Assembly: GCA_964402965.1 (NCBI GenBank)
Contig: CAYODY010000001.1
Coordinates: 72,002 to 136,001, forward strand
Direction: 5' to 3'
DNA from: an uncultured Candidatus Saccharibacteria bacterium
GTDB taxonomy: Bacteria; Patescibacteriota; Doudnabacteria; UBA920
DNA: 64,000 nt
Below, piece after piece: positions 21,593 to 25,944 of this stretch. How positions within the stretch are numbered: position 1 is the stretch's first letter; each line of letters opens with the position of its first letter. Both the position numbers and the translations under genes were made by a program. The notes beneath the pieces are model-generated. The model worked only from the letters and a program-made list of their open reading frames with translations, did not search any database and was not told the DNA's origin.

Positions 21593-22612
21593 TTATTTTC
21601 CCAATTTTTTTAATGTGCCAAGAGTCAATAAACTAGCAGGATATATTGTGCTAATTTTTTGCATGTATTCTTTGGAATTATAGATTTCATCACTAACAAA
21701 TGTTATAACGCCGTAATTGGCAATTGATTTTGCCTTTTCTTCGGTTAAATCTAAACCAAGTGTTATTTGAATCATAACGTCAATTTTACTCATCTGAACA
21801 GTTTTTATAAATTGTTTATACCTCTCTCTTAGAGTTCTTTTGGCACCAATTCCGTATACTTTATTCTTTATTTTAAAGAAAAAGTCAAATTCTGTTGAAC
21901 TGTCTGCTTTGTCATGAGTTTTTGATATGTCATTTGCTTTTATCCCCAAACTAATAAGGATATTATATATTCTGTCTTCATAATTTGAACCTGCATCGGA
22001 TAGAATCGATTGATTGATACTTTCTGAAAACATTAACATAAACATCTGATTTGGTTCCAATCCTTTAGTTTTTAGGAATCTATAATCATGAAATAGAGAA
22101 TTAACATATTCTTTAGTTGATTGAGAAATGAAACTTGTATCTTTATCTTCAAGCTTTGAAAAAAACAATAGAGAGAGTAAAGCGCCATTAACTCTAGTGT
22201 AATATGGTTTGCTTTTTGAAATCGTGTCGTATTCGACTGAAAGTTGATTTACATTTTGAAGTGAGGATAAGTTAGATATATCTCCAACTTTGGCTTCAGC
22301 GAGCAGTAAAGGTTTAATTTGAATTAATTTAAGTGAGAAAACAAAAGTGATTAAATCAGTAGTATTTTTAACTTGATACATCATGGCAGTAAGCCCTACT
22401 TTTTTAGTTTCTGAAAGCTGGTCTATTAAATTAATAAATATTGCTTTAATTTGATTGAGTGATAGTTTGGAGTTAGAAAAGTATGCTTCCAAGAATTTAT
22501 TGATTTCATTATCCGATAATTTAATAGCACCATTAAGCTCCTTTAAGAAAAAATATAGATTAAAGTTAGCATCAAGCTTATTCCTTTTAATTTTGACCTT
22601 ATTTATTTTCAT
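21593..22612 (-). CDS. candidate type II restriction endonuclease (unassigned family) cognate to the adjacent m5C methyltransferase
   Basis: 339-aa ORF with no recognisable housekeeping motif. Its start overlaps the methyltransferase stop by 14 nt (translational coupling). The call rests on genomic context only. Confidence 0.4.
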   Translation of the reverse strand: MKINKVKIKRNKLDANFNLYFFLKELNGAIKLSDNEINKFLEAYFSNSKLSLNQIKAIFINLIDQLSETKKVGLTAMMYQVKNTTDLITFVFSLKLIQIKPLLLAEAKVGDISNLSSLQNVNQLSVEYDTISKSKPYYTRVNGALLSLLFFSKLEDKDTSFISQSTKEYVNSLFHDYRFLKTKGLEPNQMFMLMFSESINQSILSDAGSNYEDRIYNILISLGIKANDISKTHDKADSSTEFDFFFKIKNKVYGIGAKRTLRERYKQFIKTVQMSKIDVMIQITLGLDLTEEKAKSIANYGVITFVSDEIYNSKEYMQKISTIYPASLLTLGTLKKLGK

Positions 22613-23603
22613 GTTTTTGCAAGGTATTAATAATCTGTTTTGCTAATGTTTTGATTACAGGCACTGCAACGCTGTTACCGAATTGTTTATACATTTGATT
22701 ATCGCTATTTGGCAAAACAAAAGAATCTGGAAACCCTTGGAGTCTTGCAGCCTCTCTAGGTGTTAATTTACGAGGGTTTTTATTTTTTTGTTCAATTAAA
22801 ATTTCAGATCCGTCTTTGTAATATCTTGCTGATATTGTACTGGTATACTTGGATTTTCTGTTAAACAAAGAATAGCCAAAACCATTACCTTTTTCTCTAT
22901 GTTCTTTTTTTCTTCTTTGGTGTCCTGCCCATAATTTATCAGAAATTGTATACTTAGGATCAATTTTCTTTTCAAGAATATCTCCTAATTTTGTTGCAGG
23001 TTTTGGTTCATCTGGAAAAGTAAATTCTATATTCCCTTTAAAAGCAACAATGTAAATTCTAACTCGATTTTGAGGCAAACCAAAATCTTTAGCATTATAT
23101 AATCTATGATAAACTTTATAACCCATATCCTCTAGGGTAGAAATAATCACTTTTAAGGTATTCCCTTTGTCGTGGCTTGCTAAATTCCTAACATTTTCTA
23201 AAAATACAACCTTTGGTTTATGGTGTTTAACTATTCTCGCTATATCAAAAAATAAGGTTCCGCGAGTATCTTCAAAGCCTTTTTTTAGACCTGCTTGAGA
23301 AAATGGCTGACATGGAAAGCCTGCTAATAACATATCGAAATTTGGAATTTCTTCTGGAGATATTTTTGTGATATCTCCGTATGGCAATTCGCCGAAGTTT
23401 GCAAGGTATGTCTTTTTCGCTGCCTCGTCCCACTCTGAAGTAAATACGCATTCACCGCCAGCATTTTCAAAACCCATGCGTATCCCTCCGATTCCTGCAA
23501 ACAAATCGATAAAAGTAAATTTAGCAGATTTAATTTTGTTAATAGGTTTAGTAAATAAGTCCCTAATTATAACTTTGCGTTTTAGAACGGTAGTATTTTG
23601 CAT
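22599..23603 (-). CDS. DNA (cytosine-5)-methyltransferase, M.HhaI-like family
   Basis: All C5-MTase motifs are present: I FIDLFAGIGGIRMGF, IV GFPCQPFSQAG, VI VVFLENVRNL, VIII QNRVRIYIVAF, X YKQFGNSVAVPV. The conserved blocks closely parallel M.HhaI; the target-recognition domain differs. 334 aa. Confidence 0.9.
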   Translation of the reverse strand: MQNTTVLKRKVIIRDLFTKPINKIKSAKFTFIDLFAGIGGIRMGFENAGGECVFTSEWDEAAKKTYLANFGELPYGDITKISPEEIPNFDMLLAGFPCQPFSQAGLKKGFEDTRGTLFFDIARIVKHHKPKVVFLENVRNLASHDKGNTLKVIISTLEDMGYKVYHRLYNAKDFGLPQNRVRIYIVAFKGNIEFTFPDEPKPATKLGDILEKKIDPKYTISDKLWAGHQRRKKEHREKGNGFGYSLFNRKSKYTSTISARYYKDGSEILIEQKNKNPRKLTPREAARLQGFPDSFVLPNSDNQMYKQFGNSVAVPVIKTLAKQIINTLQKHENK

Positions 23604-23904: not shown

Positions 23905-24042
23905 TTATTACCCTACTGCGCTACAATTAGACTTGCAATAATTACTCTTGCGCTGTTGCGAATTTTATTGATGCGGCTTATGCTTCTGCATAATTTTTTT
24001 GGTTGCGGGGCCGGGATTCGAACCCGGAACCTCAAGGTTATG

Positions 24043-24694
24043 CATACCACTATAGCTTTCGCTACTCTATCGAAATCGATTCGAAATAGATTTGATGGTC
24101 TGGACTTTCTCTTCATCCATCTATATAATGGATGCCTACCATTAAGTCTCTACACCTTCCTGAAAATCTTCAGGCTTGGCTCGGGATTGCCATCTAACAG
24201 GGTTCCCCGAATTTGATAGGATTCACATCTAAATTACTTTAGATGCAGCCCATAGTGAGATAAGTTCAAAGTTTTCTCGGTAATCAGCTGACTTTGGTTT
24301 ACGTTGACGTTTGTCAGTTTCAACTAAGGTAAGCGTGCTACCAAAACTTATAAATATTTCTACTGGAAAAACGTAAAAAATTCGTTTTTCAGGGATGTAT
24401 ACAATAGCGAAGTCAAAATCTTGTTTATTGTACAAACTTCTTATCATAAATCTGCGATTAGTCTTAGTGCGTCTAACATCAACACAATAGTTTTGATCAG
24501 AAGTGTTAAACCAAGCAGATTTTACTTGAAGTTTTACAAGCTTTCCATTTATATCAACTATTAGATCGTAGGAATGTCTGTCGCCCACAGGCTTCGAAAC
24601 TCCCCATCCAAACTCTAATAGTTTTAGAATAGTGGCTTGTTCAGCTACATCGCCTTTTAGTTTAGTATCCATATAAAGAACTTTCTCGAGATTG
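24043..24694 (-). mobile_element. group I self-splicing intron (~652 nt) carrying a homing-endonuclease-like ORF
   Basis: Reading the minus strand downstream of the ORF shows the group I core elements. P is AAATTCGGGGAACC, Q is GCAATCCCGAGCCAAGCC, R is GTGTAGAGACTTAATGG and S is AGAAAGTCCAGACC. A P6 hairpin (CCTGAAGATTTTCAGG) and a P8 hairpin (CATCCATtatatagATGGATG) are present. The 5' exon ends in U and the intron ends in G, consistent with CU|...G|CAUAA splicing. Confidence 0.75.
24229..24672 (-). CDS. intron-encoded PD-(D/E)xK-fold endonuclease (putative homing endonuclease, cf. I-Ssp6803I of the cyanobacterial tRNA-fMet intron)
   Basis: 147 aa. GDVAEQATILKLLEFGWGV...DRHSYDLIVDINGKLVKLQVKS fits a helix-E / D / (Q)xK restriction-fold core. 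It lies entirely inside the intron, 22 nt after the 5' splice site. Confidence 0.6.
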   Translation of the reverse strand: MDTKLKGDVAEQATILKLLEFGWGVSKPVGDRHSYDLIVDINGKLVKLQVKSAWFNTSDQNYCVDVRRTKTNRRFMIRSLYNKQDFDFAIVYIPEKRIFYVFPVEIFISFGSTLTLVETDKRQRKPKSADYRENFELISLWAASKVI

Positions 24695-24879
24695 AGCCTT
24701 GCGAGCTGCCAATTGCTCTACCCCGCGTCAATATATATACCAAAAGGTACTTGGAGATTATATCACTATTACTAGGATTTGGCAAGGTTTTAGGTAAAAT
24801 TTATCATAAATTTAGTCAAGTAAAACAAAACCGCCCCTTGCGGAACGGTTTCGTCGATTGCTTCGAAGCAATTATCGAA

Positions 24880-25056
24880 TTAACGACGACGCTTCTTAGC
24901 AGCTGGCTTACGCTTTGCAGCTGGCTTACGCTTTGCTACTTTACGCTTAGCTGGCTTTTTAGCGGCAGCTTTTTTAGCTGGACGCTTTGCTACTTTACGC
25001 TTTGCAGCTTTTTTAGCTGGTGCGCGCTTTGCAGCTTTTCGCTTTTTTACGGCCAT
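24880..25056 (-). CDS. small Lys/Ala-rich basic protein (histone H1-like / HU-unrelated nucleoid-associated candidate), 58 aa
   Basis: Minus-strand ORF translates as MAVKKRKAAKRAPAKKAAKRKVAKRPAKKAAAKKPAKRKVAKRKPAAKRKPAAKKRRR. It is missing from the ORF track, probably because it is under 60 aa. GGAGA SD 10 nt upstream; TAA stop at 24880-24882. Confidence 0.6.
   Translation of the reverse strand: MAVKKRKAAKRAPAKKAAKRKVAKRPAKKAAAKKPAKRKVAKRKPAAKRKPAAKKRRR
24890..25050. repeat. tandem/imperfect direct repeats underlying the Lys/Ala-rich ORF
   Basis: Perfect 18-bp tandem duplication agctggcttacgctttgc at 24901-24918 and 24919-24936. The 20-mer cgctttgctactttacgctt occurs at 24929-24948 and 24983-25002. 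ttttttagctgg occurs at 24970-24981 and 25009-25020. Confidence 0.8.
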
Positions 25057-25269
25057 TGTGGCTAGTCTCCTGAGACAAACTATTTTGGGATTGTCTCAAT
25101 TTAATTTCTACTTCCTCACAACCGAAGTTGCGAAGGCTAAGTAGTACAAGTAATTTTTTTCTTTCTGTTTTTCTATCGTTTAGGTTGCGTAATTTTTTTT
25201 ACGCGTTGTTTCTGTTTCTCAGTCGTTACAATTGAACTAACTAAATTATAAAGTTTTTATGAAGTGAAG

Positions 25270-25944
25270 TCAATAGATACTGTGCATAACTTTTTGTAAT
25301 TTATTTATTAAAATTTTATTGTGCAAAGATTTAATTTCTTTTTCTAAACGTAATTTAGAAATATTTTTAGTAGTTGTAAAATATTTTTTTAAAACACTTT
25401 CTGTTTTAGAATCAAATTCAAATTGTAATTTTATTTGAAATCTATATGCTCGAATAATTCGTAATGGGTCTTCTAAAAGTTTTTTAGTTCCATTGCCGAT
25501 TAAACGAATTACCTGGTTTTTTAGATCTTCCAGTCCCCCGTGAAAGTCCAGAATTTCACCTGTGCAAGGGTTGTAATATATAGCGTTTATTGTGAAATCC
25601 CTTCTATTACTGTCTGTTTTTGGACTAGTTATGAATCTTACTTCAGGGAATCTGTTATTGCTGTATCGCTCAGTTCTGAATGTAGATATCTCTACCTTTG
25701 AGTTCCCTTTGTGAGCTACAATAACACCGAATTTTTCATGCGAAGTAGAAAATTTAACTTTATTAAATTTCAGAATTTTTTTAACTTGCTCTGGAGTAGC
25801 GCTTGTTGCAATATCCACGTCTGTAAATTTTCGTTGTAATAAAAAATCACGAACTGCACCGCCAACAAAATATGTTTTCGGATATTCGTGAAAAATTATT
25901 TTTTGAACAAGTAAAGAAAATTTTGGAAACTTTACACTATTCAT
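25270..25944 (-). CDS. minimal tRNA nucleotidyltransferase (CCA/CC/A-adding enzyme family, Pol-beta-like head and neck only)
   Basis: GGAVRDFLLQRKFTDVDIAT (head domain with the two Asp), RRDFTINAIYYN and EDPLRIIRAYRF motifs. Only 224 aa. Confidence 0.75.
   Translation of the reverse strand: MNSVKFPKFSLLVQKIIFHEYPKTYFVGGAVRDFLLQRKFTDVDIATSATPEQVKKILKFNKVKFSTSHEKFGVIVAHKGNSKVEISTFRTERYSNNRFPEVRFITSPKTDSNRRDFTINAIYYNPCTGEILDFHGGLEDLKNQVIRLIGNGTKKLLEDPLRIIRAYRFQIKLQFEFDSKTESVLKKYFTTTKNISKLRLEKEIKSLHNKILINKLQKVMHSIY

Follow-up and report, generated by a model that had tools for sequence, protein, structure and literature searches.

The small open reading frame (ORF) on the minus strand at 25056..24880 of the DNA analysed here, a 64-kb stretch (the window, 64,000 nucleotides) of contig CAYODY010000001.1 from an uncultured member of the Patescibacteria, is almost certainly a real, conserved, stand-alone protein-coding gene. 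It encodes a polycation of 58 amino acids (aa) built from short repeats, and it is served by its own promoter, structured leader and terminator. The function that we favour, by analogy and in a finely balanced judgement, is that of a disordered polycation resembling a histone H1 tail, Hc2 or a protamine, which would bind the nucleoid and whose transcription is possibly coupled to DnaA. The elements of the transcription unit are listed below in the direction of transcription; all lie on the minus strand.

25281..25289, minus: DnaA-box-like 9-mer TTATGCACA within AAAGTTATGCACAG, which fits the relaxed consensus TTATNCACA
25245..25273, minus: sigma-70-type promoter TTGACT-17-TATAAT, 11 of 12 matches, both hexamers kept in orthologs
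25057..25238, minus: structured 5' leader of ~180 nucleotides (nt) with AACAGAAA motifs and stem-loops H0, H1 and H2, from folding and alignment
25187..25204, minus: H0, a small hairpin GCGTAA-6 nt-TTACGC, predicted fold, sequence varies
25108..25144, minus: stem-loop H1, a bulged hairpin capped by a UUCG loop, with a distal stem of 9 bp above a 3-nt bulge (AGC) and a base of 6 bp (CUACUU/AAGUAG), from ortholog folding
25071..25098, minus: stem-loop H2, inverted repeat TGAGACAA-12 nt-TTGTCTCA, arms at 25071-25078 and 25091-25098
25066..25070, minus: Shine-Dalgarno (SD) sequence GGAGA inside the invariant block GGAGACUAGCC, predicted to be mostly unpaired
25052..25062, minus: weak predicted 4-bp hairpin GCCA-CAA-UGGC containing the start codon
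24880..25056, minus: coding sequence of the 58-aa polycationic protein, TAA stop included, from ORF listing, synteny and codon analysis
24899..24936, minus: perfect 18-bp tandem duplication encoding AKRKPA twice, from Tandem Repeats Finder and exact-match analysis, an insertion relative to the aligned orthologs
24850..24879, minus: 3' hairpin directly after the stop codon, 15-nt arms 80% complementary, around the invariant GCUUCGAAGC
24821..24856, minus: intrinsic terminator, G+C-rich stem AAACCGUUCC-GCAA-GGGGCGGUUU running into UUUUGUUUU, from the ortholog consensus and missed by a simple scan

A conserved gene for a small polycationic protein

Translation of the 58 codons, beginning at ATG, returned exactly the sequence quoted in the initial annotation. 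The protein is composed of K21 R10 A18 P5 V3 M1, so that Lys and Arg make up 31 of 58 residues (53%) rather than the roughly 45% first given. It has no acidic residue and a net charge of +31, and all 58 residues belong to low-complexity K/R/A/P/V sequence; no signal peptide and no hydrophobic segment were seen in the translation. Tandem Repeats Finder reported a period of 18 (2.3 copies, 95% matches, 24895-24936) and a period of 42 (2 copies, 24965-25045). The perfect 18-bp duplication noticed initially is borne out by an exact 20-nt match at offset 18 (24936..24917 versus 24918..24899), and the 12-bp repeat was also recovered, together with exact repeats of 21 nt (offset 54), 17 nt (offset 39) and 15 nt. 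In the ortholog alignment the 18-bp duplication is restricted to the lineage of the window, and repeats have been gained and lost in frame across relatives, in keeping with the original description of an expanding repeat protein. An overlapping 104-aa ORF on the plus strand (24751..25065) was rejected as a gene: it is the mirror image of the repeat and lacks a promoter and an SD sequence.

Relatives were reached through the neighbouring gene for a PolyA_pol-domain protein, independently of the low-complexity ORF itself. Synteny alone led to six relatives, each with an in-frame ortholog of 49-54 aa that reads MAAKKRKAAKR...AAKKRRR-stop. Every relative that shares the atpC-PolyA_pol arrangement at a neighbour identity of 50-58% has such an ortholog, and in those fetched at 50-54% identity the small ORF lies ~200 nt downstream of the neighbour. 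Further relatives carry versions of 19-56 aa, among them one of 32 aa in the same synteny and, in more distant genomes, of 20 and 19 aa; the same promoter, leader and terminator are present in all of them. Differences in ortholog length are always multiples of three. Conservation of the frame in relatives had been named initially as a criterion, and the frame, the start, the N-terminus, the C-terminal KKRRR-stop and the SD spacing are all kept despite these insertions and deletions.

Synonymous (pS) differences prevail over nonsynonymous (pN) ones at the alignable ends of 12 sequences (pS 0.45, pN 0.069, pN/pS 0.15), a signal that is inflated, to the detriment of our reading, by the choice of the N-termini of 5 of the 12 with a codon-degenerate pattern. 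One Arg position is encoded by CGA, CGT or AGA depending on the relative. Codon usage likewise points to translation. CGT accounts for 80% of Arg codons; its share is 32% over the whole genome and 53% in the genes for ribosomal proteins and ATPase, and the shift has the same direction as in those genes but is larger. AAG accounts for 57% of Lys codons against 19% genome-wide, which breaks up runs of A and keeps them to a length of at most 6. The gene thus appears to be under selection for translation. A lone 8-bp inverted repeat, or a low-complexity ORF in a single sequence, would be unremarkable; here both are more than chance, since both are conserved across relatives and the hairpin shows compensatory changes.

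The identical ORF was called by gene callers on at least 23 metagenome contigs from different samples, activated sludge included, in the order atpD-atpC-PolyA_pol-ORF-PDDEXK_5. The term "unannotated" is therefore too strong for the ORF as such, while it describes the protein well, whose exact sequence is absent from a collection of 15 billion proteins. Ten contigs from different samples are identical over the 500 nt from promoter to terminator, which rules out strain-level repeat polymorphism among them. The comparison of copy number between strains that had been proposed thus gave no difference, and changes are visible only between species-level relatives. Homologues of the neighbouring PolyA_pol-domain protein are named "Patescibacteria group bacterium" and "Candidatus Doudnabacteria", and the G+C content of the window is 36.9%. 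These names, together with the style of the genome, point to a Patescibacteria bacterium. A contig scan of a genome collection with the neighbouring gene yielded two distant, unrelated loci only.

A dedicated transcription unit with a structured leader

From the position of the promoter we infer a transcription start near 25238 and hence the leader of ~180 nt. The initial annotation had seen stem-loop H2 alone, which proves to be one module of this larger leader, and it had missed the promoter, the DnaA-box-like motif and the terminator. The leader folds with a minimum free energy of -40.8 kcal/mol (z = -3.2), and none of 200 shuffled sequences folded as well. Its last 95 nt adopt the same fold in all 12 orthologs. 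In 12/12 orthologs stem-loop H1 combines a base of 6 bp with a bulge of 2-3 nt and a distal stem that spans 6-9 bp and differs in sequence, single-sequence energies being -10.7 to -15.8 kcal/mol, and the spacer between H1 and H2 is AAAAUUAA in the same 12. The place of H0 is taken in relatives by a hairpin of different sequence; the complement of H0 is the plus-strand terminator-like site of the terminator scan.

The inverted repeat at 25071-25098 was described correctly, in that its arms are complementary at 8 of 8 positions, and it is conserved with compensatory changes. Four of the nine pairs of H2 are changed on both sides (one pair is AU in 5, GC in 5 and CG in 2 sequences), and 95% of cells are paired. 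When H1 and H2 were scored on an alignment not fitted to the structure, 92% of pair cells were paired, compared with 41-54% after the partners had been slid by 1-3 columns. Seven leader pairs in all show changes on both sides, and the observed covariation score was reached by 0 of 500 shuffles. A covariance model (R1) spanning H1, H2 and the SD sequence, run against 447 kb comprising the window and the fetched loci, matched only upstream of the small gene. Two of its matches, in the more distant relatives L017 and L018, precede ORFs of 20 and 19 aa (MAKKRKVAKKKKGGSKKKRR and MANKKAAKKKKGGSKKKRA), so the leader is at least as conserved as the body of the protein. The leader (25057-25238) found no match in Rfam 15 even at E ≤ 5.

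The initial annotation placed the GGAGA sequence 10 nt upstream of the start and suggested that the hairpin might occlude it. The SD sequence is indeed present at 25070-25066, with a spacer of 9 nt to the ATG. Occlusion by H2 was rejected because the stem stops 1 nt before GGAG and the SD sequence is predicted to be mostly unpaired, with an unpaired probability of 0.6-0.9 in 10 of 14 orthologs. A small stem comparable to the one predicted around the start codon is predicted in most orthologs and takes the form UAGCC...GGCUA in L017 and L018. A long-range pairing of UAGUU at the 5' end with GACUA after the SD sequence was discarded; it occurs in one minimum-free-energy structure, and its 3' side is invariant, so that no covariation signal is possible.

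At the other end of the gene, the core of the 3' hairpin is invariant in 10 orthologs. In the consensus, the terminator stem comprises 13 pairs, of which 5 have changed in a compensatory manner, and a U-run comes after it in 10/10 orthologs. The next gene, a tRNA(CAU), has its own promoter (24785..24757, TTGCCA-17-TATAAT with an extended TG). Together, the terminator and the separate downstream promoter indicate that the ORF is monocistronic. Relatives can be aligned over the promoter, leader, SD block and 3' elements but not over the flanking DNA.

Two relatives, L009 and L010, are identical across the atp-PolyA_pol-small ORF region and diverge immediately past the terminator, where a serine recombinase (Resolvase/Recombinase domains) follows in one and RmuC-NYN-PIN in the other. 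Divergence at this point suggests an integration hotspot just after the gene, at the place occupied by tRNA(CAU) in other relatives.

A DnaA-box-like element upstream of the promoter

The 9-mer TTATGCACA lies 7 nt upstream of the -35 hexamer, where it shares sequence with the final codons of the PolyA_pol-domain gene upstream; in other clades of the family the box is intergenic. The family motif is AAAGTTATNCACAG, built around the DnaA-box consensus TTATCCACA and situated a few to ~20 nt upstream of -35. With at most one mismatch, a box occurs within 300 nt in 28 of 46 distinct upstream regions. It has the orientation of the gene in 29 of 30 matches, and its density there is 2.2 per kb as compared with 0.30 per kb elsewhere in the same loci (~7-fold). 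Upstream regions cannot otherwise be aligned between clades.

DnaA is known to act as a transcription factor from promoter-adjacent boxes (PMC13438810, PMC11317965). The locus resembles the DnaA-regulated promoters of dnaA, nrdAB, sda and gidA in that a 9-mer matching TTATNCACA, a putative site, stands just upstream of -35 and is conserved among the promoters of the family; it differs in having a single box. Our literature search turned up no earlier case of DnaA controlling the gene of a polycation or nucleoid protein. The locus was also considered as a replication origin and rejected, as it has a single box and no cluster, and there is no switch of gene orientation in the window.

Relation to known basic proteins

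The initial annotation called the protein histone H1/Hc1-like. As regards composition this is apt, with a resemblance to histone H1 tails and to Hc2, yet the protein falls outside the Hc1, Hc2 and Burkholderia H1-like families, all of whose cutoffs it misses, and the globular domain of histone H1 is absent. The sole similarity in Pfam was a sub-threshold match to HC2 (PF07382; 12.6 bits against a cutoff of 40), for which relatives score 10.5-22 bits. NF038052 gave 9.6-11.6 bits with relatives (cutoff 135) and no match with the window protein, and NF038053 (Burkholderia H1-like) gave 15.9 bits with the window protein and 18.1 with the best relative (cutoff 80). The linker histone winged-helix domain (PF00538) was not found in a Pfam search of the window protein. 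Ribosomal-protein families in Pfam and NCBIfam gave no match at E ≤ 1, and PDB chains none at E ≤ 10.

Chlamydial Hc2 (hctB; PF07382, NF038052) is among the closest in character. It shares short Lys/Ala-rich low-complexity repeats; differences in the number of Lys-rich repeats make its size variable (PMC2848022), and regulation of its mRNA is presumed. It is larger, at 165-237 aa, and has another repeat unit and N-terminal signature and belongs to another phylum; scores here are 10-22 bits against the 40-bit cutoff, and the organism of the window is not known to have a developmental cycle. DNA binding by the window protein would be an analogy. The same A/K/P composition and PAKK/AKRK-type repeats characterize the C-terminal tail of eukaryotic histone H1 and the PAKKA/AKKA tails of actinobacterial HU (MDP1/Hlp), Ku and HBHA. 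Such tails are disordered polycations that bind DNA non-specifically (PMC3553676, PMC10665949). The window protein consists of nothing but such a tail and lacks a winged-helix, HU or Ku domain that could position it. Protamines and protamine-like sperm nuclear basic proteins are alike in having tens of residues, more than 50% of them basic, in their fast evolution of length and repeats and in a presumed role in charge neutralization, but they are Arg-dominated, eukaryotic and unrelated in sequence, while the window protein is Lys-dominated; the parallel is one of analogy only. Pseudomonas AlgP and the Burkholderia H1-like proteins (NF038053) share KPAA/AKKA-type repeats and are larger (~195-350 aa). 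AlgP associates both with the nucleoid and with polyphosphate granules (PMC9239181), so that the window protein, too, may have some polyanion other than DNA as its target.

As a kind, H1-like repeat proteins rich in Lys and Ala are already known from bacteria. What is distinctive in this case is the extreme smallness, the tail-only architecture, the conserved N-terminus, the structured leader, the promoter-proximal DnaA-box-like element and the phylum.

The wider family and its visibility in databases

Scanning metagenome contigs with the back-translated N-terminus M[AP][AV]KKRK[AV]AKR yielded 43 loci, two of which (L046 and L051) look like false positives. In the other loci the reading frame runs on through repeats rich in K/R/A/P(/T/V) until it meets a stop codon or, in three, the end of the contig. 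Members of the family share the N-terminus M-[AP]-[AV]-K-K-R-K-[AV]-A-K-R and range from 13 to more than 118 aa, on contigs of 32-52% G+C; this drift in length reflects in-frame gain and loss of repeats. Neighbouring genes vary. SecA is near in 7 of ~40 loci, and linkage to dnaA, dnaN or ribosomal-protein operons was seen at none in the neighbour survey.

Protein databases contain almost no trace of the family. A phmmer search with the 58-aa protein found nothing among 5.8 billion sequences. A profile search of protein collections returned only four relatives (P0121-P0124) and two weak compositional matches; P0124 is a correctly called 32-aa ortholog, and P0121-P0123 are over-extended calls. 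An exhaustive search of representative proteins, with a profile that itself contained the false N-terminal extension, gave 4 proteins and no fusion to a known domain, and both of its further matches were over-extended as well. The over-extended calls (P0121, P0122, P0123, P0127 and P0128) translate the leader, as in "...FVSGRLAQM-AAKKRK..." or ...EKLRDESKLFVSGRLAQ before the true Met. It is the false extensions that make these proteins long enough to enter databases, and the miscalls in relatives have left the family poorly catalogued. Being too short, of low complexity and often miscalled with a leader-derived extension, such proteins are nearly invisible there, and trypsin-based proteomics and small-ORF cutoffs can both be expected to miss them.

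Long structured leaders seem to be a trait of the family, although they are non-homologous between clades. One clade has a second, different conserved leader, AGGTCGA ... ATGCTTGTCRTGTAAA ... GGTGTGTACCATGGTNACATCAAA ... GGGGGTG-ATG, with AAAGTTATRCACAG before it, seen in L020 (1570-1905) and upstream of small ORFs in L023, L045 and L049. The hexamer GGTCGA is found in sense orientation in the leaders of 11 of 40 distinct loci (1.39 versus 0.17 per kb per strand), and in 7 loci it stands 31-40 nt before the ATG without an obvious SD sequence. The loci with GGTCGA outside the window's clade include L020, L023, L031, L038, L039, L042, L048, L050, L056 and L058; in the window's clade the equivalent position, just past the -10 hexamer, is taken by AGTTCAA or AGTCCAA.

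Proposed function and alternatives

From the 31 positive charges on 58 residues and the lack of a hydrophobic core we infer that the protein has no role open to it but that of a disordered polycation, which calls for a polyanion as partner. Binding would be through Lys and Arg side chains and without sequence specificity. Chromosomal DNA would be the likeliest target, its charge being neutralized and the nucleoid of a very small cell compacted. DnaA occupancy of the box would tie synthesis of the protein to replication status, and the leader hairpins might set the stability of the message or allow the protein to feed back on it. Three considerations favour DNA: length drift driven by repeats is tolerated, as in Hc2 but not in structural ribosomal peptides; the only resemblance in databases is to H1-like proteins; and the DnaA box suggests coupling to replication.

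Several observations weigh against this proposal. Inside the window, 9-mers fitting the box occur at chance level (18 observed, 17.4 expected), so the evidence for the element is its conservation across loci and not the single site. The box is a single 9-mer, is missing in 18 of 46 loci and overlaps coding sequence in the window's clade. The resemblance to histone H1 and Hc2 is compositional only, every family threshold being missed. A leader that is structured and specific to one gene is more usual where ribosomal proteins autoregulate than in front of genes for nucleoid proteins, and the orthologs of 19-20 aa recall tiny ribosomal peptides rather than proteins of chromatin.

These last points bring in the main alternative, a polybasic peptide bound to the ribosome or RNA (like bTHX, bS22 or eL41) or a general RNA chaperone, which we regard as possible and distinctly less probable than a nucleoid polycation. 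A peptide of this sort would fill rRNA grooves of the reduced Patescibacteria ribosome and repress its own translation by binding stem-loops H1 and H2 of the leader, a habit common among ribosomal proteins. Genes for small basic ribosomal proteins commonly have an autoregulatory-looking leader, and the leader here is gene-specific, strongly conserved and covarying. The protein is very small and basic, its shortest orthologs (19-20 aa) being comparable to the extremely basic bTHX, bS22, bL36 and eL41; its codon bias runs in the direction of ribosomal-protein genes; and in the window's clade it adjoins a tRNA nucleotidyltransferase-like gene and tRNA genes. Set against this, the fixed length expected of ribosomal proteins is not seen, with 19-58 aa within the syntenic clade and more than 118 aa in the family, a variation of which structural ribosomal proteins are intolerant. 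Neither a ribosomal-protein family (E = 1) nor a PDB chain (E = 10) matched. The gene is unlinked to ribosomal-protein operons, its neighbours outside the clade vary and are not translation genes, and the DnaA box would be left unexplained.

An exported or contact-delivered effector, antimicrobial or membrane-permeabilizing in the manner of polylysine or protamine and directed by an epibiotic cell at its host, is improbable. Its composition would suit a cationic antimicrobial peptide, fast evolution of repeat length is expected at a host interface, and there is the SecA neighbour at some loci. Those loci are a minority, SecA being more than 30 kb away in the window; the protein lacks a signal peptide, a hydrophobic segment and amphipathic character; and a DnaA-box promoter points to a link with the cell cycle.

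We give still less credence to a regulatory leader peptide or stalling ORF, whose Lys and Arg codons would sense charged tRNA, or provoke stalling, and control read-through of the terminator into tRNA(CAU). The ORF is short, is made of nearly two amino-acid types only and is followed by a hairpin and terminator, and several clade members have tRNA(CAU) next. A separate promoter serves the tRNA, folding of leader and terminator revealed no alternative antiterminator pairing, and the amino-acid sequence of the ends is kept through synonymous changes, for which a pure stalling sensor would have no need. Attenuation by a leader peptide was rejected because the downstream genes vary even among close relatives (resolvase, RmuC, hypothetical proteins, convergent genes). 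That the ORF is no protein at all, only a by-product of a tandem DNA repeat, or that its transcript is a non-coding RNA, is hardly credible in spite of the low-complexity repetitive DNA and of 5' and 3' structures better conserved than the body of the ORF, given the frame, ATG, SD spacing and KKRRR-stop preserved through many indels, all multiples of three, the synonymous exchanges (CGA, CGT and AGA at one Arg position), the AAG enrichment that breaks up A-runs and a plus-strand ORF that merely mirrors the repeat, with neither promoter nor SD sequence.

Returning to the nucleoid polycation, a broader proposal can be made tentatively, and we consider it rather unlikely as a whole: uncatalogued, ultra-short, repeat-expanding polycations of the Patescibacteria (Candidate Phyla Radiation, CPR) may serve as a main counter-ion or compaction factor of the nucleoid, with synthesis coupled to replication through the conserved DnaA box and additional feedback tuning through the lineage-specific leader. 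If true, this would give bacteria a counterpart to the replication-dependent expression of histones or protamines. The cells of Patescibacteria are very small and their genomes reduced, and to our knowledge the packaging and neutralization of their DNA are essentially unstudied; our literature search found nothing on CPR bacteria together with nucleoid, histone-like or H1-like proteins. Nucleoid polycations with a promoter read by DnaA would be a minimal way of coupling chromatin supply to replication, and would add a new regulatory RNA leader. Even with the ribosome as target, a gap would be filled in the parts list of reduced bacteria.

Genes around the small ORF

All genuine large ORFs of the window are on the minus strand, and the few plus-strand ORFs overlap minus-strand genes. 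Such extreme co-orientation without a switch indicates that the window contains no replication origin or terminus. Upstream, the gene at 25270-25944 (minus strand) encodes a 224-aa protein with the PolyA_pol head domain (PF01743) only, short for a CCA-adding enzyme and conserved directly after atpC. Its stop codon falls inside the -35 hexamer of the small gene's promoter, its last codons hold the DnaA-box-like motif, and its 3' end is extremely rich in A+T (18% G+C over 25250-25429).

Downstream, at 23999-24727 (minus strand), the tRNA(CAU) gene is interrupted by a group I intron containing a homing-endonuclease ORF of the PD-(D/E)XK type (PF11645):

~24727-24694, minus: tRNA(CAU) exon 1, ending ...GGCU, from the split-gene reading
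24229-24672, minus: homing-endonuclease ORF, PF11645, from ORF and domain
24080-24267, minus: group I intron core, Rfam match
~24043-23999, minus: tRNA(CAU) exon 2, beginning CAUAACC, from the split-gene reading

ARAGORN missed the split gene; the spliced sequence matches an intron-less tRNA(CAU) at the same position in L018. The insertion appears to be at position 33/34. Introns in Patescibacteria tRNAs are mostly at 35/36 and mostly without endonuclease genes (PMC13011429). At 21593-23603 (minus strand), beside the tRNA cluster, a C5 DNA methyltransferase (PF00145, 334 aa) overlaps by 14 nt with a 339-aa ORF of no assigned family, and the two are probably a restriction-modification pair.

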